64,000 nt of DNA, taken from assembly GCA_023389745.1 (NCBI GenBank), contig JAEWED010000197.1, forward strand, positions 1,212-65,211, in the 5' to 3' direction. Position numbers and translations under genes: made by a program. Shown piece by piece: positions 1-9,058 of the stretch. The stretch comes from Actinomycetes bacterium (GTDB lineage: Bacteria; Actinomycetota; Acidimicrobiia; Acidimicrobiales; Microtrichaceae). Every line of letters starts with the position of its first letter. The first letter of the stretch is position 1. The notes under the pieces were generated by a model. That model did not search any database and was not told the DNA's origin. It saw nothing but the letters and a program-made list of their open reading frames with translations.

Positions 1-1553
1 TCGATGAGCAGCTTGTCGAGAGTGTCGGCGTCGATGCCGGTATCCACCGCGAGCACCTCGGCCGCTGCGGCCGAAGGTGCGACACCGAAGCACGGTCGCC
101 CCTCGGCGTGGAGTCGAGCGACGGCCGGGCGCATTGCACTGGTCTTACCGGTGCCGGCAGGTCCGACGACGAGGACCAGGCGTCGCTCTCCTGCGACAGC
201 CCCCGCTGCGTGGTTCTGCACGGCGGTCAGCTCGCCGTCGTGGTCGAGGTCCTGGGCGTCACTCCCACCTTCGGCGGCGCATCGTCGGGTGAGGTCGAGG
301 ATGTGCTCCTCCTCATCCAGGATCGCCCTCGTGGTGAGGATCCGGTCGAGCGCTCCTTCGGTGACCGGCCGCCCGTCCTGGCGAAGCGGGACCTGGTCGG
401 GCAGGGGTCGGGAGATGTCGAGGGTGAGCGCGTCCTCGACGTGCGACGCGAGCCGCTGCGCCCGTTCGACGACCTCGGCAGCGGTGCCGCCGAGGCGGGT
501 GGGCAGCGCGGCGGCGATCTCGCGGGTGATCTCGGCAGGTCGCCACACCGACTGGGTGTCTCGCAGCGAGGACAAGGCGTCGAGGACCGTGTCGCGTTCG
601 GTGATCGCGTCGGCTTCGATCGGGCGGGTGCGCCCGGTGACCAGGTCGAGGTAGCGGTCGGGGCTGAAGCCGAGGGCTTGGAGCTGGCCGATCCACTGCT
701 CGTGGAGGAACTGGGCGTCCTCGCTGGTCTTGGACGGGCGGCTGTCGATGGCGGCCTCACGCTCGATGCGCCACCGCTCCCGGGGCGTGGGTCGCCGGCC
801 AAGGCTCTCGACGAACCGCTCGGTCTTCTCATCGAGGCGACGGGCCATCTGGCGCGTGCGCTGGGAGAAGGCGTCGAGGACCTCGTCAGGAGCGTCGACG
901 ATCTCGGCCTGACCGTTCACGACCTCGTTCCAGCGAACGCCGAGCCGGGAGGTCAGCTCGGCCCGCAGCCCGGCCGCGTAGAGCGCGGAGATGGTGCGCG
1001 GGTCGTGCTTGAGGGTGCGGGCATCGAGGGCCAGCCACCGGCCGTCGGGGGCCATGACCCGGTTCGGGATGACGAGGTGGGTGTGGACCTGCGGGTCGTG
1101 CGCTCGGCTGGTGTGCTGGCGAAACGCGGCGGCGACCAGGCCGCGGGCGTCGACAGTCCACACCTCGCCGTCGACCCGGTAGCGGCAGTGGGCGTGGTCC
1201 TCGATCCACCCGAACGCCGCCGCCACCGCCGCGTCATGTGCTTCGAGGACGTCCTTGCGGACCCGGTCGTCGCCGATGGCGAACAGGACCGACACCGACT
1301 TCGGTGCCGAACAGGTGACGTCGAACCCGCGCACCGTGCGCTCGTGGTGGCTCGTTCCCAGCAGCTCGCCGGTGGCCGGGTCCCGGCCGTCCATCAGCGA
1401 GTGGAAGTCGTCGTCGTCCACCTCCCCGGCGAGACCGAGGGAGACGGCGCCGCGGCCGAGCCACCGGCCGGGCGGCTCGTCGCCATCCAGGTAGTACCGG
1501 CCAGGGCCGTCGACGTAGTAGGCGCCGGCGTCGGGGCCCTTGAGCGTGGTCAC
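1..1553 (-). CDS. MobF/TrwC-type conjugative relaxase fused to a P-loop helicase (N-terminal part only; gene runs off the left edge)
   Basis: Absent from the ORF track because it has no stop in the window; the minus frame is open from nt 1 to ~1650. My translation from GTG 1553 reads VTTLKGPDAGAYYVDGPGRYYLDGDEPPGRWLG...FDVTCSAPKSVSVLFA...HTSRAHDPQVHTHLVIPN (relaxase His-triad region). LVLVVGPAGTGKT (Walker A) lies at nt 141-179. Alternative in-frame GTG starts are at 1565, 1577 and 1592. Confidence 0.8.
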   Translation of the reverse strand, partial: MTTLKGPDAGAYYVDGPGRYYLDGDEPPGRWLGRGAVSLGLAGEVDDDDFHSLMDGRDPATGELLGTSHHERTVRGFDVTCSAPKSVSVLFAIGDDRVRKDVLEAHDAAVAAAFGWIEDHAHCRYRVDGEVWTVDARGLVAAAFRQHTSRAHDPQVHTHLVIPNRVMAPDGRWLALDARTLKHDPRTISALYAAGLRAELTSRLGVRWNEVVNGQAEIVDAPDEVLDAFSQRTRQMARRLDEKTERFVESLGRRPTPRERWRIEREAAIDSRPSKTSEDAQFLHEQWIGQLQALGFSPDRYLDLVTGRTRPIEADAITERDTVLDALSSLRDTQSVWRPAEITREIAAALPTRLGGTAAEVVERAQRLASHVEDALTLDISRPLPDQVPLRQDGRPVTEGALDRILTTRAILDEEEHILDLTRRCAAEGGSDAQDLDHDGELTAVQNHAAGAVAGERRLVLVVGPAGTGKTSAMRPAVARLHAEGRPCFGVAPSAAAAEVLAVDTGIDADTLDKLLI

Positions 1554-1650
1554 CCGGGCGGTCACGAGCGACTCCCGCACGAGCTCGTGCACTCGTCTGT
1601 CGATCGTTGCGACGCTTGCGCTCGAGTCGGTCCGGTCACGGGTCGCTCCT

Positions 1651-2100
1651 TCAGCGGGAGGGGTGGGTGACGGTGATGCCGGTGCCGTCGAGGTGGACCA
1701 CGTAGGTGGGCGGCTCCATCGGTCCGGTCGACGGCAGGACTTCGAGGACACCGGCCCGGCGGAGCTGGCGCAGCCGCCGATGCGCGCTGTCCTTGGACAG
1801 GAACCCGAGCCGCTCGGCCACACCCCGGGTGCTCGCCGCCACCACCAACCGACCGTCGACCAGCTCGGCCTGGGCGACGAGCACATGCAGCACCGCCACC
1901 GCGTCCGGCCCGTGTTCACGCATGAAGTCGAGCGCCTCGGGGTAGCGATGCTCGATCAGCACCTCCCCCGCCGCCAGCTCCGTCGACCCGGCCGCTGTCG
2001 CAGGCTCGGCAGGAACGGCACGACGCGCCCGCGGGCGCGTCGGCCCTCTGGCGGGGGCCTCGGGAGCGAGGTCCAGGAACGTCAGTTGCTCGGCTGCCAT
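1651..2100 (-). CDS. winged-helix DNA-binding protein of the mobile element (function unknown; regulator or replication/transfer accessory)
   Basis: 149-aa ORF directly upstream of the relaxase on the same strand. The segment STRGVAERLGFLSKDSAHRRLRQLRRAGVLEV reads as an HTH plus wing (MarR/ArsR-like). Confidence 0.6.
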   Translation of the reverse strand: MAAEQLTFLDLAPEAPARGPTRPRARRAVPAEPATAAGSTELAAGEVLIEHRYPEALDFMREHGPDAVAVLHVLVAQAELVDGRLVVAASTRGVAERLGFLSKDSAHRRLRQLRRAGVLEVLPSTGPMEPPTYVVHLDGTGITVTHPSR

Positions 2101-2380
2101 ATCGACCTCCGGACGGGCGCGGAGATCCCGTCACCTAGGTAGGCCGATTTCGAGGCCGAATCTCGACAAGAAATCCGCGATTCCTCGCGACTTCTTGTCC
2201 CCGATGTGCGACACAGCTACGGGTCGGGCGTGGGACTGGTCAGGTCGGCCGTGCCGTGCGACGATGACAAGCGATCCCGCCCGGACCGGTCCGGTCCCTG
2301 CAGGCCCCTCGTGACGGTGGGAATCCGTCGCCTTCCAAACCGCTCCGACCACGCGTCGGACGTGTCCTCAGGAGAAGGCG

Positions 2381-3754
2381 ATGACCACCGGCCGCAACAA
2401 CATCCGCAAGCGCGGATCGACCTGGACCTACCGCCTCTACGTCACCGAGGGCGACGGCACCCGCCGCCAGACCTCCAAGGGCGGCTTCGCCACCCGCAAG
2501 GAGGCCGAGACCGCCCGGGCCGAGGCCCTCACCGCGATGGCCACCGGGAGCTGGGTGAAGCCCGACCGGCTCACCGTGGCCGAGTTCCTCACCGACGAGT
2601 GGCTACCGACCCAGCTACCGCCGACCCTCGAGGAGAGCACCTACGTCAGCTACGCCCGCAACCTCCGGCTCCACGTCGCGCCCTACATCGGCGGCATCCG
2701 GCTCCAAGAGCTGACCCCGATGGACCTCAACGCCCTGTACCGCAAGCTCCTCGACTCCGGTCGACGGCCACCCGGTACGCCGGCCCGCCAGCACGACCAG
2801 GCCGTGCTCGACCTCATCGCCGACCTCAAGGGCGAAGGCAACACATGGCAACAGGTCGCCGACGCCGTCGGTGAGGCGTTCCCCGCCGAGGCCGGGATCA
2901 CCCGGGATGCCGTGGCCGCGGCGCACCGACGAGCACAGCGGCCGGCTCCGCTGGCGAAGGACCCGGGGCTGAGCAACCGGACGGTCCGCTACGTCCACAC
3001 GATCATCCACGCCGCGCTGCGCGACGCGATGCGCTGGAACCGCGTCACGCGCAACGTCGCCTCCTCTGCGACTCCCCCACCCCAGTCCTCGACCCGGAAG
3101 AAGCGGCGCACCACCTGGACCGCCGAGCAACTCGTCCAGTTCCTCGACTTCGTCGCCGACAGCCCCTACCTCCCGGCCTGGATCTACCTCGCCACCTCCG
3201 GCTCACGCCGCGGCGAGGTCCTCGGCCTCAAGTGGGAGGACATCAACTTCGACGGGCACGAGGCGCTCATGTCCCGCCAGCTCTGCATGGTCGGCCACCG
3301 CATCGTGATCAAGGACCTCCCCAAGACCAAGACAGGCCACCTGATCGCCCTCGACCCCGGCACCGTGCAGATGCTCCGCGACCTCCAGACCCGCCAGGCC
3401 GAACTCAAGCGCATGCTCGGCGCCGGCTACCACGACGAAGACTGGATCTTCTGCCGGGCCGACGGCGTGCCGCTCCACCCCGAGCGCTTCAGCCGGGAGT
3501 TCCTCCGCAAGCAGGAGGCCTACAACAAGGCCCACGCCGACGAGCCACTACCGAGGCTGAAGCTCCACGGCCTCCGCCACACGTGGGCGACGCTCGCTCT
3601 GGAGGAGGGCATCGACATCCACGTCGTCAGCGACCGCCTCGACCACAGCAGCACCCACATCACCAGCGAGATCTACACCCACGTCCGCCGCCCCCTGCAG
3701 TCCGACGCCGCCGACCGCGTAGCGGCGAGGATCTTCGGCAATGGCCATGGATGA
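2381..3754 (+). CDS. int: tyrosine recombinase / phage-type integrase
   Basis: 457 aa. It has SGSRRGEVLGLKWEDI (first catalytic Arg) and LKLHGLRHTWATLALEEGIDIHVVSDRLDHSSTHITSEIYTHV (HxxR...H...Y catalytic box). An AGGAGAAGG Shine-Dalgarno sits before the ATG. Confidence 0.95.
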   Translation: MTTGRNNIRKRGSTWTYRLYVTEGDGTRRQTSKGGFATRKEAETARAEALTAMATGSWVKPDRLTVAEFLTDEWLPTQLPPTLEESTYVSYARNLRLHVAPYIGGIRLQELTPMDLNALYRKLLDSGRRPPGTPARQHDQAVLDLIADLKGEGNTWQQVADAVGEAFPAEAGITRDAVAAAHRRAQRPAPLAKDPGLSNRTVRYVHTIIHAALRDAMRWNRVTRNVASSATPPPQSSTRKKRRTTWTAEQLVQFLDFVADSPYLPAWIYLATSGSRRGEVLGLKWEDINFDGHEALMSRQLCMVGHRIVIKDLPKTKTGHLIALDPGTVQMLRDLQTRQAELKRMLGAGYHDEDWIFCRADGVPLHPERFSREFLRKQEAYNKAHADEPLPRLKLHGLRHTWATLALEEGIDIHVVSDRLDHSSTHITSEIYTHVRRPLQSDAADRVAARIFGNGHG

Positions 3755-4056
3755 CGGGCCCGGCGACTCCCCCGGGCCCGGCGGTAGGCGCTCCATGCTC
3801 CCGCCGGCTCAGCACGGGTGGGTTCCACTGGATCGGGAACCGGCGGGGCGCCGCGAGGCCCCTCCGGATTCCGCCGATGCTCGTACTGCCCGTCGCCTGC
3901 ACCTCGATCGATCGAGTCCGGTCACGAAGGCGGTCGCAAAGACCGTTCTTGACCGCCCGGCTGAATACCATAACGGTTGACGTAGCAATTGCGAGATACA
4001 GTACCGAGATACAGACAGTCGCGCTCGGAGATGCGTCATTGTGTACGGAGGTTGAG

Positions 4057-4584
4057 ATGCCGGTTCCGGAGATTGAAGCGATGGGTCAGGTTGCCGAAGC
4101 GCTGGAACGCCTCGAGCCTGAGGAGCGGAGCCGCGTCATACGGTGGGCGGCGGAGCGCTACGGCGTGACGCTTGGGAAGAGCCCGACGAAGGGTCGCGAG
4201 GATCCCCTCGACGAAGTCGACATCGACGAGGAGGACGAGGTTGGCGGAGGGCGTGACAATCCGGCTAGCAGCGGCGAATTCGAGCACTTTGCGGACCTCT
4301 ACGCCGCGGTCGACCCCAGCACCGACAAGGAGCGCGTCCTCGTGGCTGCGTACTGGGTCCAGGTGATCGAGGGCGACGACACGTTCGGCTCGACGGTGCT
4401 GAACAAGATGCTGAAGGATCTCGGGCACAGCGTTGCGGCCATCAACAAGGCGATGAGCCGGAACATGAACGAGAAGCCGCAGCTGATTCTGCAGGTGAAG
4501 CGTGGGGGAAACTCTCAGCAGTCACGGAAGGTTTACAAGCTGACCGCCGCCGGCGTCGCCTGGGTGAAGGGGCAGTTGGGCTGA
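4057..4584 (+). CDS. island cargo protein A: helical N-terminus, acidic linker, C-terminal wHTH-like domain (hypothetical)
   Basis: I take the internal ATG 4057 of track ORF 3232-4584, because ACGGAGG lies 7 nt upstream and the A/T-richer patch begins ~3960. The protein (175 aa) contains DPLDEVDIDEEDEVGGG and ends ...SQQSRKVYKLTAAGVAWVKGQLG. Its stop TGA (4582-4584) is 1 nt from the ATG of the next gene. Confidence 0.7.
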   Translation: MPVPEIEAMGQVAEALERLEPEERSRVIRWAAERYGVTLGKSPTKGREDPLDEVDIDEEDEVGGGRDNPASSGEFEHFADLYAAVDPSTDKERVLVAAYWVQVIEGDDTFGSTVLNKMLKDLGHSVAAINKAMSRNMNEKPQLILQVKRGGNSQQSRKVYKLTAAGVAWVKGQLG

Positions 4585-4585
4585 G

Positions 4586-5347
4586 ATGACGCTGTCGCCC
4601 GGTGCCGCCTTTGCCGACCTGCCGACCGGACTGCGAGACGACTTAGTCGACGCCTACAACGACGTCGTGAGGAACTATGCCGAGCGGAGATGGGGGCCGT
4701 CCGAACTCGACGGCGGAAAGCTCTGCGAAGCCGTCTACACGGTGATCCGCGGAATGGCCGACGGAACGATGGCGGCTCGGGCGTCGAAGCCCCGTGACAT
4801 GGTGAGCGCGTGCCGCAACATGGAGCAGGAGACCGCTCAGTCTCGGTCTGTGAGGATCCAGATTCCGCGGATGATCGTGGGCCTGTACGAGATCCGCAAC
4901 AACCGTGGTGTGGGCCATGCTGGTGGTGACGTAGACCCCAACGAGATGGACGCGACAGCGGTCCTCTACATGAGCAAGTGGTTGCTGGCCGAGCTCGTAC
5001 GGGTCCGGCACACGCTGACGACATCCGAGGCCGAAGTTCTTGTCGAGTCGCTGGTGGAGAGACAGGTACCGGTCGTGTGGACCGGGGAGGACAAGAAGCG
5101 AGTCCTTCGACCAGGCCTGACCTGGAAGCAGAACACACTTCTGTTGCTGCTCTCGGAGGCGGGCGAGGTGGCTGAGGCGGACCTGTATGGCTGGCTCGAG
5201 CATCCCTCCCTGAAGAACTTCCGAGGCGCGGTACTTCGCCCGGGGCACAAGGAACGACTGTGGGAGTACAACGAGGACAGACGGACTGTGACACTCCTGC
5301 CGCCCGGCGTCGAGGCTGGCGAGGAGCTTGCCCGGGCGTTGTCCTAG
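4586..5347 (+). CDS. island cargo protein B: HEPN-motif (RN..H) protein with C-terminal wHTH-like region, abortive-infection-like (hypothetical)
   Basis: 253 aa, translationally coupled to A. The central motif is LYEIRNNRGVGHAGGDVDPNEMDA (R104-H111, nt 4895-4918), which fits the HEPN R-x4-6-H signature with Asn after Arg. The family assignment is from memory of Abi_C/HEPN families, not from a search. Confidence 0.7.
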   Translation: MTLSPGAAFADLPTGLRDDLVDAYNDVVRNYAERRWGPSELDGGKLCEAVYTVIRGMADGTMAARASKPRDMVSACRNMEQETAQSRSVRIQIPRMIVGLYEIRNNRGVGHAGGDVDPNEMDATAVLYMSKWLLAELVRVRHTLTTSEAEVLVESLVERQVPVVWTGEDKKRVLRPGLTWKQNTLLLLLSEAGEVAEADLYGWLEHPSLKNFRGAVLRPGHKERLWEYNEDRRTVTLLPPGVEAGEELARALS

Positions 5348-5403
5348 TCGGCAGCTGACACTCACCCGCTCCCGCAGATCGAACAAAGAGCCCCGGCCAG
5401 CAC

Positions 5404-5417
5404 CCGGAGTTCCGCAG
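5404..5417. repeat. IS left terminal inverted repeat (CCGGAGTTCCGCAG), preceded by target duplication AGCAC at 5399-5403
   Basis: Read directly from the sequence. Confidence 0.85.
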
Positions 5418-5516
5418 TTGGGGTGGTGGTCTAGGTTCCCGAAATGCCCAGTGACCTGCGAGAACGCGTTGATGGGCGCGGGAGTGCCGTGTATCTATGC
5501 GGGGCGTGACCGCTGG

Positions 5517-7184
5517 TCAGGCTGCAGGCGCGGCGGCGGGTCGGAGTTCGGTGAACTCTCGGGGCTCCGCGATGCCGAGGGCGTTGAAGATGCGGGCTTG
5601 GGCTTGGGTGGTTGTGGTGCGGCGCTTGACGGTGCCGGCCGGTCCGGTGAAGACGCCGAGGTGCATCTGGTCGAGCTCGTGGCGCAGGTTCCGCCAGGTG
5701 TCGCCGGTGGTGATCTCGGCGACGCGGATGAGCAACAGCGCGAGCCAGCACAGCACGACATGGGCGCGGATGCGGTTCTCCAACCGGTGGTAGACGGGTC
5801 GCAGCTCGAGGGTGGACTTCATGTCGCGCCAGCCGCGTTCGACTTCGAGGAGTTGCTTGTAGCCAAGCGCGATGTCTTCGACCGACAGGGTCGGATCCGC
5901 GCTGCGCAGCAGGAACTTGCCGTCGAGGCGTTCTTCGGTGGTGACCGCGGAGCGGTCGATGCGCAACAGCCAGGCCGGTGTGGTGCGCAGGAACCGGCGC
6001 AGCCCGGCGGGCAGAGACCCGGCCAGTTCGGCCCGCTTGGCCGCTGGGAGCTTGTCGGTGTCGTCGATGGCGTCGGCGAGCTGAGCGAGGAGCTGCTCGC
6101 GCACGGCCCGATCGCGGGTTGCTTGTTCGGGGTTGCGGCAGATCACGAACCGGTCCCGCATGACGCCGTCGTCGAGCACGACCTCCTTGACCTCCAAGTT
6201 GCCCGAGATGGTGTGGTAGCGGCCTTGGCGGGCGAGCGCGGCGTCGGCTTCTGGGGTGCCGCCACGGAGCTTCTCGCCCAAGATGTAGCTGCCCCCGGCG
6301 CGCTGGAGGTAGCGACGGTTCTCCGCGGATGCGAAGCCTCGATCCGCGACCCACACCACCCGGCCCAGCTTCCAGGCGTGGAGGTCGTCTTTGACCTGGC
6401 GGATCAGCGCGGAGTCGTTCGTGTTGCCGGGCCAGGACCACACCCGAATCGGGATGCCGGTGCGGGTGACCGCCATCCCGATGATCACCTGGGGCAGATC
6501 CGGGCGGTGGTCCTTGGAGTGGCCGTGGGTGCGGAACCCGACCGTCTCCCCCTCGGCTGGATCGTCGGCGGTCTCGATCTCGAAGTAGGTCGAGGTCGTG
6601 TCGAAGAACAACGGGTCGACCTCGAGGTTCAACAGGTCCGCAGTGGCCCAGTAGACGGCCTCAGCGAGGGGTTCTTCGATCTCCAACAGCCAGTCCATCG
6701 CCCGGTAGCACGCGTCGGCGTCGACGTCGTCGAGCCCGTCGATGTGGACCCGGTCGCGAACCCAGCTGGTCGCAGCCAGCTTCGAGGACGGATCGATCGC
6801 CCGGTTCGCCACGAGCGCGAACAGCACCCGCTCCACCTCCGAAGCGCGCTTGGTGCCCGAGACGAGCTTGCGCAACGTCTTGTCGATCCCCAAGCGACGC
6901 CACAGCGCATCGAGCACGTAGGCAGCGCCCATCGGCCGTGACTCGCTGAACTCCAGATCGCCACCCACCCCGGTCGACAGGGCCTGCTGCGGTGGAAGCG
7001 CACGCGACAACGAACCGATCAACCGGGCGATGGCGTCACGGTCCAGCTCGTCCTCGCGGCCGAAGTTGTAGATGACCTGCACCCGCGACTGACCGGCCTC
7101 GGCGTCCCAGTCGTTGTGGGCCAACTGCAAGTACCGGACCTCGCTGCCGTCCTTGCGACGCCGTTTCGTCGTTCGCAGATACAT
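5517..7184 (-). CDS. IS1634-family DDE transposase
   Basis: 555 aa. The N-terminus MYLRTTKRRRKDGSEVRYLQLAHNDWDAEAGQSRVQVIYNFGREDELDRDAI is the hallmark start of IS1634-family transposases as I remember them. Confidence 0.9.
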   Translation of the reverse strand: MYLRTTKRRRKDGSEVRYLQLAHNDWDAEAGQSRVQVIYNFGREDELDRDAIARLIGSLSRALPPQQALSTGVGGDLEFSESRPMGAAYVLDALWRRLGIDKTLRKLVSGTKRASEVERVLFALVANRAIDPSSKLAATSWVRDRVHIDGLDDVDADACYRAMDWLLEIEEPLAEAVYWATADLLNLEVDPLFFDTTSTYFEIETADDPAEGETVGFRTHGHSKDHRPDLPQVIIGMAVTRTGIPIRVWSWPGNTNDSALIRQVKDDLHAWKLGRVVWVADRGFASAENRRYLQRAGGSYILGEKLRGGTPEADAALARQGRYHTISGNLEVKEVVLDDGVMRDRFVICRNPEQATRDRAVREQLLAQLADAIDDTDKLPAAKRAELAGSLPAGLRRFLRTTPAWLLRIDRSAVTTEERLDGKFLLRSADPTLSVEDIALGYKQLLEVERGWRDMKSTLELRPVYHRLENRIRAHVVLCWLALLLIRVAEITTGDTWRNLRHELDQMHLGVFTGPAGTVKRRTTTTQAQARIFNALGIAEPREFTELRPAAAPAA

Positions 7185-7328
7185 GTATCCAGCACGATAC
7201 CCGAAGTACCAAGTCCAGTCGAGCTACAACCACCAAAGCGTGTATCTAGGCGGTTCGGGCTCTCAGAGCACCCCGCAATCCTGTGACCAGCACGTTCGCG
7301 TTCGCGTGTACCCAGAAACGGCCTTCAG

Positions 7329-7342
7329 CTGCGGAACTCCGG
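7329..7342. repeat. IS right terminal inverted repeat (CTGCGGAACTCCGG), followed by target duplication AGCAC at 7343-7347
   Basis: Exact reverse complement of 5404-5417. Confidence 0.85.
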
Positions 7343-7421
7343 AGCACGTCGCAGAATGCTGTGATGACAAAACAATGACAAGCGGCCGATTCAGGGCGAC
7401 GCACCTCGCCCGAAAACGGCG

Positions 7422-7447
7422 CTGACCAGGGCGTTTGCCCTGGTCAG
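7422..7447 (-). terminator. hairpin (11-bp stem, 4-nt loop) immediately 3' of tRNA-Leu
   Basis: CTGACCAGGGC-GTTT-GCCCTGGTCAG. On the minus strand it is followed by CGCCGTTTTCGGG (a short T run). Confidence 0.6.
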
Positions 7448-7448
7448 G

Positions 7449-7535
7449 TGGTGTCGGAGGGGGGACTTGAACCCCCACGCCCTTGCGGGCACTAGCCCCT
7501 CAAGCTAGCGCGTCTGCCAATTCCGCCACTCCGAC
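7449..7535 (-). tRNA. tRNA-Leu(GAG), CCA encoded
   Basis: The reverse complement folds as GTCGGAG-TG-GCGGAATTGGCAGACGC-G-CTAGC-TTGAGGG-GCTAG-(15-nt variable arm)-GGGGG-TTCAAGT-CCCCC-CTCCGAC-A-CCA. Confidence 0.9.
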
Positions 7536-7676
7536 GTGGCCTCCGCATCTCTGCGAAGCGAGGCGTCACTGTAGCGCACCCGCGCCCAGGACTCGAAACA
7601 CGATCCCCGACACGCCGCACGCCACGCCGGGCAAGCTTGCAGCACGCACCATCACCCCCTGGAAGGGATCGCACCG

Positions 7677-8225
7677 ATGAGCAACTACGACACGTTCGTC
7701 CTGTTCGCCGCCGAGTACAGCAACGTCGAAGACGCCGAGCTCGACTACGAAGCGGTCAAGGCCCTCTACTACGACCTCGACCTGGTCGACACCTTCGACG
7801 CGGCGGTCATCGAGCGCAAGGACCACGGCAAGGTCAAGATCGTCAAGAAGCACGAACAACCGACCCGCAAGGGTGCGTGGATCGGTGGCGGACTGGGACT
7901 CGCGGCAGGCGCCGTGCTGCTCGTGTTCCCCGCCGCGGCCATCGGCGCGGGGGTGCTGGCCGGCACCACCGCCGGCGGCGCGGGCGTCGGCGCGCTCGCC
8001 GGGCACGTCGCCCGTGGCATGTCACGCCACGACCTCAAGGAGCTCGGCGAGTCGCTCGACGAAGGCGACGCCGGTCTGGTGGTCATCGCGGCGGTCGACC
8101 TCGAGGGCCGCATCGCCGACGCGGTCGCCCGCGCCGACAAGATCCTGCGCAAGCAGATCAAGGCCGACCGCAAGGAGCTCGAGAAGGAGCTGAAGGACGC
8201 CGAGAAGGAGGCCGAGAAGGCCTGA
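7677..8225 (+). CDS. DUF1269-like membrane protein (Gly-rich TM segment, C-terminal KE-rich coiled tail)
   Basis: 182 aa: MSNYDTFVLFAAEYSNVEDAELDYEAVKALY... followed by GAWIGGGLGLAAGAVLLVFPAAAIGAGVLAG. Confidence 0.65.
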   Translation: MSNYDTFVLFAAEYSNVEDAELDYEAVKALYYDLDLVDTFDAAVIERKDHGKVKIVKKHEQPTRKGAWIGGGLGLAAGAVLLVFPAAAIGAGVLAGTTAGGAGVGALAGHVARGMSRHDLKELGESLDEGDAGLVVIAAVDLEGRIADAVARADKILRKQIKADRKELEKELKDAEKEAEKA

Positions 8226-8239
8226 GCCGCTCCGCCCGA

Positions 8240-9058
8240 TCAGCCGCCGCGGCCGAGCAGGTGCGCGGCGTGCTGCACGACCATCGGGTCGGGCTCGTGT
8301 GCGACCTTGTCGTGCTTGTGCTTGTAGTCGAGCGAGTGGAGCACGTGACGCATCGACTCGAGTCGCGCCCGCTTCTTGTCGTTCGAGTTCACGACCGTCC
8401 ACGGCGCGGCGTCGCTGTCGGACTGCGCCAGCATCTCGTCACGCGCCGCGGTGTACTGGTCCCAGCGCTTCTGGGCCTCTTCGTCCATCGGCGAGAACTT
8501 CCACTGCTTCAGCGGGTCCTTCAGCCGGTCAGCGAAGCGCTTCGCCTGGTTCTCGCGTGACACTGTGAACCACAGCTTGAACAAGCTGATGCCCGATTCG
8601 ACGAGCGCCCGTTCGTACGCCGGCACCTGACGGAAGAACTCGCCGTACTCCTTGGGCGTGCAGAACCCCATCACCCGCTCGACGCCGGCCCGGTTGTACC
8701 AGGACCGGTCGAACAGGACGAGCTCGCCGGCGGTCGGCAGGTGGTTCACGTAGCGCTGGAAGTACCACTGGCCCTGCTCGGTCTCGTTCGGCTTGGGCAG
8801 CGCGACGACGCGCGCGCTGCGGGGGTTCATGTTCTGCACGAACCGCGAGATCGAGCCGCCCTTGCCCGCAGCATCACGTCCCTCGAAGAGGATGACGACC
8901 TTCCCGCCGGACTCGTTGACGTGCTTCTGGAGCTTCAGCAGCTCGATCTGCAGGTCCCGGAGCTGCGCCTCGTAGACGTCGTTGGCGAGCTTGTCGGGGT
9001 ACGGCGGCTCGTCCTCCATCTGGAGCAACGACGGTGCGGGATGCTTCGAATTGCCCAC
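8240..9058 (-). CDS. ppk2: polyphosphate kinase 2 family protein
   Basis: VVILFEGRDAAGKGGSISRFVQNMNPRSARVVALPKPNETEQGQWYFQRYVNHLPTAGELVLFDRSWYNRAGVERVMGF is the PPK2 core including the Walker A. Confidence 0.9.
   Translation of the reverse strand: MGNSKHPAPSLLQMEDEPPYPDKLANDVYEAQLRDLQIELLKLQKHVNESGGKVVILFEGRDAAGKGGSISRFVQNMNPRSARVVALPKPNETEQGQWYFQRYVNHLPTAGELVLFDRSWYNRAGVERVMGFCTPKEYGEFFRQVPAYERALVESGISLFKLWFTVSRENQAKRFADRLKDPLKQWKFSPMDEEAQKRWDQYTAARDEMLAQSDSDAAPWTVVNSNDKKRARLESMRHVLHSLDYKHKHDKVAHEPDPMVVQHAAHLLGRGG

Follow-up and report, generated by a model that had tools for sequence, protein, structure and literature searches.

In the 64,000-nt window analysed here, which covers positions 1,212 to 65,211 of contig JAEWED010000197.1 and belongs to an actinobacterial scaffold of 131 kb from a metagenome, two small co-oriented genes lie between a tyrosine integrase gene and a tRNA-Leu gene (Table 1). 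We refer to them as A and B. According to structure prediction, protein A begins with a helical hairpin, which an acidic linker joins to a winged helix, while protein B has an N-terminal helical domain of the HEPN type which is followed by a winged helix-turn-helix (wHTH) domain. On balance we favour the view that the two genes make up a conflict module which is self-contained, spreads horizontally and works by abortive infection or as a toxin system; B would then be an RNase effector and A its regulator or sensor.

The pair differs from its surroundings in base composition. The G+C content is 0.63-0.645 over positions 3800-5400 and 0.68-0.72 in the flanks, and the G+C content at third codon positions (GC3) is 0.83 for A and 0.795 for B as compared to 0.86-0.96 in eight neighbouring genes. 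Both measures bear out the A/T-richer patch which the initial annotation had noticed between the integrase gene and an insertion sequence (IS). The TTGACG hexamer, the direct repeats, the ACGGAGG motif, the TGA-G-ATG junction and the two open reading frames (ORFs) were all found where that annotation had placed them. As ORFs are cheap in DNA of 70% G+C, with several long shadow ORFs overlapping B in the opposite orientation, the coding status of A and B rests on their homologues; the N-termini of the A homologues are consistent with a start of A at 4057 (alignment A2).

Table 1. Positions of the A/B gene pair, its sequence signals and the adjoining features in the window.
Feature	Position	Strand	Basis or remark
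Second hexamer, TTGACC	3949-3954	+	read from sequence
TTGACG hexamer, possible -35 element	3977-3982	+	read from sequence
Direct repeats CGAGATACAG, exact 10 nt, two copies; candidate operator	3992-4001 and 4005-4014	+	13-nt spacing, start to start
Shine-Dalgarno-like ACGGAGG	4045-4051	+	5 nt 5' of ATG 4057 (start of A)
Gene A, 175 aa	4057-4584	+	ORF and homologues
A/B junction TGA-G-ATG, 1-nt gap	4582-4588	+	fits translational coupling
Gene B, 253 aa	4586-5347	+	aa 1-157 helical and HEPN-type; aa 160-253 winged helix
E48 codon, invariant acid in helix 2	4727-4729	+	79/79 in alignment A3
R104-H111 motif RNNRGVGH	4895-4918	+	R104 at 4895-4897, H111 at 4916-4918
C-terminal winged helix of B, aa 160-253	5063-5344	+	secondary structure, Foldseek
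Tyrosine integrase of host element	2381-3754	+	Pfam Phage_integrase 5.6e-21, Arm-DNA-bind_4, Phage_int_SAM_3
IS element between B and tRNA	5404-7344	-	DDE transposase at 5517-7184, Pfam DDE_Tnp_1
tRNA-Leu(GAG), probable integration site	7449-7535	-	ARAGORN; Rfam tRNA, 52.9 bits

Conservation of the gene pair

Homologues of B group into 2,498 clusters when 90% identity is required and into 1,177 at 50% (E≤1e-3). A scan of one genome per species gave 80 B loci (the pairing counts use 81), which are distributed over Actinomycetota, Pseudomonadota, Chloroflexota, Acidobacteriota, Patescibacteria, Bacteroidota, Cyanobacteriota, Deinococcota and other phyla. In 71 of the 81 loci, B is abutted by an ORF of the same orientation with 100 aa or more, whatever its homology; relative to the start projected for B, the stop codon of this partner has a median position of +1 nt. 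A match to the A profile is located directly upstream of B in 46 of the 81 loci (35 strong matches and 11 weak ones, via the N-terminal region). When homologues of A were looked up in reverse, all three had an abutting B gene downstream. The co-occurrence of A-like and B-like neighbours, which had been suggested as a check on the pairing, is thus observed from both sides. Clustering of all ORFs within 6 kb showed the partner to be the only conserved neighbour of B, except for a third family which is present in 15 loci.

Most of the ten remaining loci contain partner remnants that are truncated, frameshifted or displaced, or have suffered an IS insertion. At six loci (L011, L028, L051, L053, L054 and L061) B is of full length and has an intact motif while the partner gene has been truncated, frameshifted or displaced or is absent; some of the partner-disrupted loci may reflect assembly errors, including those of metagenome-assembled genomes. 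A 381-aa protein (P0318) was not used as a partner-B fusion, as its C-terminus is scrambled and it seems to have arisen by read-through or by a frameshift.

The proteins of the third family have about 206 residues, with an N-terminus like LKNAWAAVQEAGLPEAMHEVAFREAVRLL, a low-complexity linker and a C-terminal globular domain (L018:6837-7457 and 14 other loci). Their genes are usually found just upstream of the partner, and in one case such a gene abuts B itself (L002:7228-7995). The family was not assigned to any Pfam family and is missing from the window. As the gene precedes the partner in 15 of the 81 loci, some versions of the module would be three-gene operons.

One relative of B is encoded on a plasmid. 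This is a 290-aa hypothetical protein from Natronomonas pharaonis plasmid PL131 (L096, positions 3435-4307), which matches residues 20-140 of B at 30% sequence identity. Its gene adjoins a transposase of the ISH6 family and has no abutting partner. Because this relative is archaeal, the HEPN-type domain seems to reach into the Archaea.

In the leader of the pair, the 9-nt sequence GAGATACAG at 3993-4001 and 4006-4014 lies inside the 10-nt repeats, and a repeat of 10 nt exceeds what is obtained from mononucleotide shuffles (p about 0.01). Both repeat copies are unchanged in the nearest relative (L091, 98% identical), in which the flanking bases differ. No sigma-70-like promoter was called by a consensus scan. 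The repeat is a plausible candidate operator for this particular locus; it was rejected as a family-wide operator since a comparable repeat occurs in only 3 of 35 A-type loci. The leader of a B homologue with 80% identity (L087:3040-3226) carries two copies of CGACTTACGG together with an inverted GGGATAC...GTATCC, both found by eye only, and the part which is common to these and the window repeats is restricted to a GATAC core. The differing repeats of the two leaders hint at locus-specific operators. Antisense across the A/B junction (4525-4628 on the minus strand), the Rfam motif 'COG3860 RNA' matches below threshold (21.1 bits versus a gathering threshold of 42.5, E 0.27), and this is most likely a chance match.

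The HEPN-type domain of protein B

Protein B, which contains LYEIRNNRGVGH, was modelled by AlphaFold2 from an alignment of 40 sequences (mean confidence pLDDT 88). The first 157 residues are predicted to be all helical, with helices at 14-32, 44-59, 72-79 (short), 87-105, 118-142 and 146-156. The hallmarks of HEPN domains have been described as an Rx4-6H motif, a polar residue (N, D or H) after the arginine, an acidic residue in helix 2 (often as Ex3[KR]) and an insert between helices 2 and 3 (PMC3710099). All of these have a counterpart in B. The motif is R104-x6-H111, with N105 as the polar residue; helix 87-105 ends at R104-N105, and H111 is located in the loop 106-117 ahead of helix 118-142. 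The acid of helix 2 is E48, within helix 44-59, and position 52, which would complete the Ex3R pattern, is an arginine in 44 of 79 relatives and a threonine in the B protein of the window. Residues 60-86 correspond to the insert between helices 2 and 3, and the topology of the model is compatible with the four-helix up-down core of HEPN domains.

Conservation was evaluated in an alignment of 79 full-length B representatives which share 26-47% sequence identity (alignment A3). R104 and H111 are each conserved in 78 of the 79 sequences, N105 in 73 (with Ser or Thr otherwise), and E48 in all; R107, D122 and W132 are also found in 79 of 79. The near invariance of the R/H pair, on which the HEPN proposal of the initial annotation had been made to depend, is therefore retained down to low levels of sequence identity. 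A Y..R..R...H pattern occurs in 80 of the 81 genomic B copies and the remaining copy differs at the tyrosine only.

In fold comparisons, a query with the two-domain B model gave no match at E≤1e-3 in a Foldseek search against the PDB. The best match outside the wHTH domains is the HEPN protein AF0298 (2hsb), with a probability of 0.91, a TM score of 0.54 over 144 columns and an E value of 0.69, and the HepT structure 6m6u is also among the matches (probability 0.35). The C-terminal 75-80 residues match the winged helices of MarR, HpaR, TubR and FOXN with probabilities of 0.95-1.0. Sequence, model and fold matches thus agree with the R104..H111 motif and the wHTH-like C-terminus that had been read from the sequence, and the HEPN-compatible model supports the earlier proposal that B is a HEPN-type effector. 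Foldseek against viral structures returned nothing relevant, and NCBIfam, PADLOC and PHROGs gave nothing for the B protein of the window.

Among weak Pfam matches of the 79 relatives, Abi_C (PF14355) is the most common: it was found for 10 members over the motif region, with a best E value of 0.02. The consensus of a divergent clade has Abi_C as its top match (E 0.0015, 19 bits), which spans helix 3, the motif and helix 4; the Pfam gathering threshold of Abi_C is 24 bits. From sequence and model taken together, we consider it very probable that the N-terminal domain of B is a HEPN domain capable of catalysis, which is nearest to Abi_C but outside it.

Two other assignments of B were rejected. 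Fic proteins (7cb8, 4rgl) are the top Foldseek hits, but they superpose with a root mean square deviation of 17-18 Å, TM scores of 0.16-0.26 and probabilities of 0.30-0.47, and B has no HxFx(D/E)GNGRxxR motif. As homologues of B give weak matches to Pfam Fic-like_C over the wHTH, the resemblance probably stems from that domain. PADLOC gave weak matches only for the 79 relatives, the best of them to CARF3--CARF_TM in 6 members (E value 4.7e-05); there is no CARF or CRISPR context, and these matches were taken as noise from the wHTH or the helical domain.

Protein A and its modular relatives

Homologues of A fall into 106 clusters. Protein A, which contains DPLDEVDIDEEDEVGGG and RKVYKLTAAGVAWV, was modelled with a mean pLDDT of 83 as a helical hairpin (residues 4-35) and a winged helix (residues 78-175), which are connected by an acidic disordered linker at residues ~40-75 (pLDDT below 50 at 43-67). 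Invariant residues of the hairpin are R26, V27, R29, W30 and E33, and further invariant residues are located in the winged helix. Foldseek matches this winged helix to those of ORC4, MCM8, PadR and MarR and to a MukBEF chain (probabilities 0.99-1.0, E values 0.006-0.1). The helical N-terminus, acidic linker and winged-helix C-terminus that the initial annotation had described are thus recovered in the model. No family for A was found in Pfam, NCBIfam or PHROGs, and its match in PADLOC is a weak one to JetB (E 0.0056). A was nevertheless rejected as the JetB/MukE component of a Wadjet system, as JetA, JetC and JetD are neither nearby nor kept across loci. We treat the resemblance to JetB and MukBEF as generic winged-helix similarity.

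While its position upstream of B is fixed, the partner itself is modular. Its C-terminal ~100 residues belong to at least 10 sequence classes, of which class 1 (A-like) accounts for 33 loci and class 2 for 23 loci, the rest being small. The winged helices of class 1 and class 2 are homologous to each other according to hhalign (probability 95.8%, E 8e-9). An N-terminal hairpin with the pattern 'RVLxWAxxKY' is common to some partners of classes 1, 2 and 3, and other partners have different N-termini. We counted this modular and diversifying partner in favour of a conflict module, as sensors and antitoxins tend to diversify.

The charge of the linker was compared between the two larger classes, taking the 40 residues ahead of the C-terminal domain. 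Class 1 linkers are always acidic, with a net charge of -2 to -10 (median -6), and the winged helix behind them is basic (median +6). In class 2 the linker is basic in every case, with +3 to +15 (median +7), and the winged helix is near-neutral (median +1). Because its charge switches with the partner class, we suggest that the linker does more than connect the domains passively, and that it acts as a mimic or a binder of nucleic acid.

As both proteins carry winged helices, they might also be regarded as a non-catalytic regulatory pair, that is as two transcription or partition-type factors of mobile elements, with the helical domain of B as a ligand- or protein-binding module. The similarity of the winged helix of A to those of ORC, MukE and JetB-type proteins, including the PADLOC match mentioned above, would agree with such a function, as would the sub-threshold nature of the HEPN homology; some HEPN domains are indeed non-catalytic binders (PMC3710099). 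However, those non-catalytic domains have lost the Rx4-6H motif (PMC3710099), while R104, N105, H111 and E48 are 92-100% conserved in this family down to 26% sequence identity. In addition, neither JetA, JetC and JetD nor partition genes were found nearby, and the A-B pair moves by itself among unrelated contexts. We therefore consider a purely regulatory pair to be quite improbable.

Genomic setting and proposed function

The element which carries the pair is an integrative mobilizable element. On the upstream side, beyond the integrase, it codes for a small helix-turn-helix protein, a TrwC relaxase of 1,103 aa, an N6_Mtase/Eco57I protein and RlaP. The IS that is now located between B and the tRNA gene ends in 14-nt terminal inverted repeats CCGGAGTTCCGCAG (5404-5417 and 7331-7344), and AGCAC is found just outside both ends (5399-5403 and 7345-7349), which is probably the 5-bp target duplication of the IS. 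Because the IS split the original spacer between B and the tRNA gene, its insertion is recent relative to the element. Before its arrival, A and B were thus positioned directly between the integrase gene and the probable attachment (att) site in the tRNA gene. This corresponds to the slot between integrase and att site to which the pair had originally been assigned. A second copy of the att sequence, the 3′ end of tRNA-Leu, is not found in the 5.4 kb upstream of the window (L001 1-5415). As the far att repeat was not found there, the element is larger than 12 kb, with its left end farther out.

In other genomes, too, the loci of the pair are often integrative elements or islands of restriction-modification (RM) genes. 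In Agromyces, the pair occurs with a type I RM operon and Fic. One pair is located in a serine-recombinase element with DUF2637, a TrwC remnant is found beside smpB near the pair of Nocardia, and an integrase and N6_N4_Mtase are near that of Mycolicibacterium (L095). In Microbacterium sp. CIAB417 (L094:9389-13727) the pair heads a row of genes for YaaC, DNA_methylase and RE_XamI (a type II RM system), DUF3800 and Prim-Pol/AAA_25, which is a compact defence island inside an apparent integrated element.

These contexts bear on the question of whether the pair might consist of a housekeeping RNA-processing enzyme and an accessory factor that are found in mobile DNA by coincidence. HEPN RNases do include RNA processors such as Las1 and Ire1 (PMC3710099), and two of the contexts are devoid of mobile or defence genes. 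However, the distribution of the pair is patchy, cross-phylum and non-syntenic, with the partner as the sole conserved neighbour. Its GC3 is atypical, it is flanked by an integrase gene on one side and a tRNA att site on the other, and the partner is hypervariable, so that we regard a housekeeping role as extremely unlikely.

In comparisons to described systems, neither A nor B has a significant match in PADLOC-DB v2.0.0, and Jet or CARF neighbours were not found. Considering Pfam, NCBIfam and PHROGs as well, in which significant matches were also not obtained, the initial statement that the pair does not correspond to a named system still applies; our literature search found no description of a winged-helix protein that is paired with a HEPN-wHTH protein. 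In our view the pair represents a large family of HEPN proteins which had no name so far, and of which both the architecture and the modular partner are new.

B is not a member of Abi_C, but in working terms it is closest to the abortive-infection proteins Abi_C, AbiJ (PF14355) and SadR and to HEPN toxin modules. The five-residue spacer is the commonest one in the R-polar-x5-H motif of Abi_C, and in SadR, an Abi_C RNase from S. aureus, mutants of the R, N and H of the motif RNEYGDAH lose RNase activity and phage defence (PMC13590631). B has the same spacing (RNNRGVGH), has Abi_C as its best, albeit sub-threshold, Pfam match, and occurs in a comparable defence or mobile setting. It differs by staying under the gathering threshold, with 19 bits for the best consensus and no match for the B protein of the window. 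Furthermore, the HEPN domain of B is N-terminal and is followed by a wHTH, whereas that of Abi_C/AbiJ proteins is C-terminal, either behind an AbiJ-NTD or with no N-terminal domain (NTD) at all (PMC3710099, PMC13590631). Finally, B is paired with a partner in most loci while AbiJ and SadR are single-gene systems.

A precedent for a HEPN RNase that acts together with a separate winged-helix protein is provided by type IX retrons. In Retron-Kva2, the active site of the HEPN protein is encircled by the winged-helix protein together with DNA and stays off until a phage nuclease removes the DNA (bioRxiv 10.64898/2026.07.14.738597). This is also a precedent for the gating that we propose below. In contrast to these retrons, no reverse transcriptase (RT) or msr/msd is found near the pair, the only Rfam matches at threshold in positions 1-9000 are to tRNA, and no RT is conserved near B in the 81 loci. 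The gene order is winged helix (A) and then HEPN (B) here, but HEPN followed by an overlapping winged-helix gene in type IX (PMC7736814). The retron HEPN protein is without the canonical histidine, which is conserved in B, and the retron winged-helix protein, with 245 aa and two alpha/beta domains that bind HEPN, differs from A. None of the PADLOC retron models is matched by A, by B or by 79 B relatives. Membership of the pair among retrons was rejected because of the missing RT and msr/msd, the reversed gene order and the canonical histidine.

HepT-MntA, a type VII toxin-antitoxin (TA) system, is likewise made up of two genes, and its HEPN RNase toxin has the Rx4-6H motif as does B. The A/B pair is distinguished by the partner, which consists of a hairpin, an intrinsically disordered region and a winged helix and is not an MNT nucleotidyltransferase, as well as by the extra wHTH of B and the lack of a HepT or HEPN match in Pfam.

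The arrangement is also similar to that of a generic type II TA system: the genes are small, abutting and co-oriented, the first one codes for a protein with a DNA-binding fold, the partner is modular in a way that recalls antitoxin shuffling, and there is an association with mobile elements. The pair could then be a classical addiction module which stabilizes the element, with B as a constitutively toxic RNase and A as a labile antitoxin that binds B and acts as a repressor of the operon at the leader repeats, and with no dedicated anti-phage role. The direct repeats in the leader and the location next to an integrase, here as well as near one in Mycolicibacterium, would agree with this. However, unlike typical addiction modules, the pair is nearly absent from plasmids, as one weak and partial archaeal match was obtained from 72,556 of them. 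B is intact despite the damaged or missing partner at the six loci named above, it has a wHTH of its own, and the leader repeats are not a feature of the family, so that a conserved autoregulatory operator is lacking. Moreover, several loci are situated in RM islands and not at element ends. We thus consider a type II TA pair to be unlikely. Of the defence or addiction module that the initial annotation had proposed, the part that invokes a HEPN effector is supported, while the addiction part is weakened by the plasmid data. Likewise, its description of A as a DNA-binding partner, sensor or antitoxin is supported with respect to the winged helix, but the persistence of B at loci with a disrupted partner speaks against an indispensable antitoxin. 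Because of this persistence and because the module avoids plasmids, we favour a regulator or sensor over a classical antitoxin.

Several observations weigh against a conflict module with a HEPN effector. No significant database match of B to any HEPN family was obtained (the best Foldseek E value for a HEPN protein being 0.69), the B protein of the window has no Pfam match even at E≤10, and sequence searches of the PDB with two profiles gave nothing relevant. As there is no significant hit, the HEPN homology of B rests on the hallmarks and on sub-threshold matches. No B homologue was obtained from 50,697 phage records, and the single plasmid match has no partner. Neither the locus in Streptomyces nor the DUF6197/DUF6308 neighbourhood has anything obviously related to mobility or defence beside the pair, and the scarcity of comparable leader repeats among the A-type loci also belongs here.

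The data show the gene pair and its conservation, the predicted folds, the conserved motif and the mobile or defence surroundings. For the conflict module that we favour, we infer RNase activity, contact between A and B, gating by A, a trigger and a defence phenotype, and the following mechanism may be envisaged. B would be the effector, with an N-terminal HEPN-type metal-independent RNase domain that is closest to the Abi_C/AbiJ/SadR branch. Its active site would be made up of R104, N105 and H111, with assistance by E48, and the protein is probably dimeric, as are other HEPN RNases. The C-terminal winged helix of B may bind either nucleic acid or the partner. A would be a regulator or sensor which is co-translated with B, its winged helix binding nucleic acid while the hairpin and the charged linker make contact with B and so hold the RNase in a latent state. 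A latent effector fits the loci where B stays intact while the partner looks disrupted. Upon a cue derived from an invader, B might be released and cut RNA so that the infected cell stops growing.

A more specific version of this mechanism is possible and is advanced here only tentatively. The pair may represent an unnamed widespread defence family in which a diversifying modular winged-helix sensor, with its many C-terminal classes, several N-terminal modules and class-dependent linker charge, directly gates an Abi_C-like HEPN RNase that has a winged helix of its own, by sensing nucleic acid of the invader. This would be a masking similar to that of type IX retrons but without RT and multicopy single-stranded DNA (msDNA). 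The recently solved type IX complex, in which a winged-helix protein and DNA mask the HEPN site, offers a structural hypothesis for this.

HEPN RNases are recurring effectors of bacterial immunity and of toxin systems, and candidate HEPN defence modules are common. It is the size and breadth of the family, its lack of annotation and the swappable partner which make this pair a worthwhile target. If our interpretation is correct, it would add a large HEPN family, with some 1,200 clusters at 50% identity and members in at least 8 phyla, which current annotation and defence-finding libraries miss completely, and it would provide a name and a testable active site for thousands of 'hypothetical proteins'. 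With the fixed position of the partner and its swappable N-terminal, linker and winged-helix modules, the family represents a natural experiment on the matching of a sensor or regulator to an RNase that stays the same. In actinobacteria, among them Streptomyces, Mycolicibacterium, Nocardia and Microbacterium, the pair is a candidate barrier against phages or mobile DNA that is itself carried on integrative elements.

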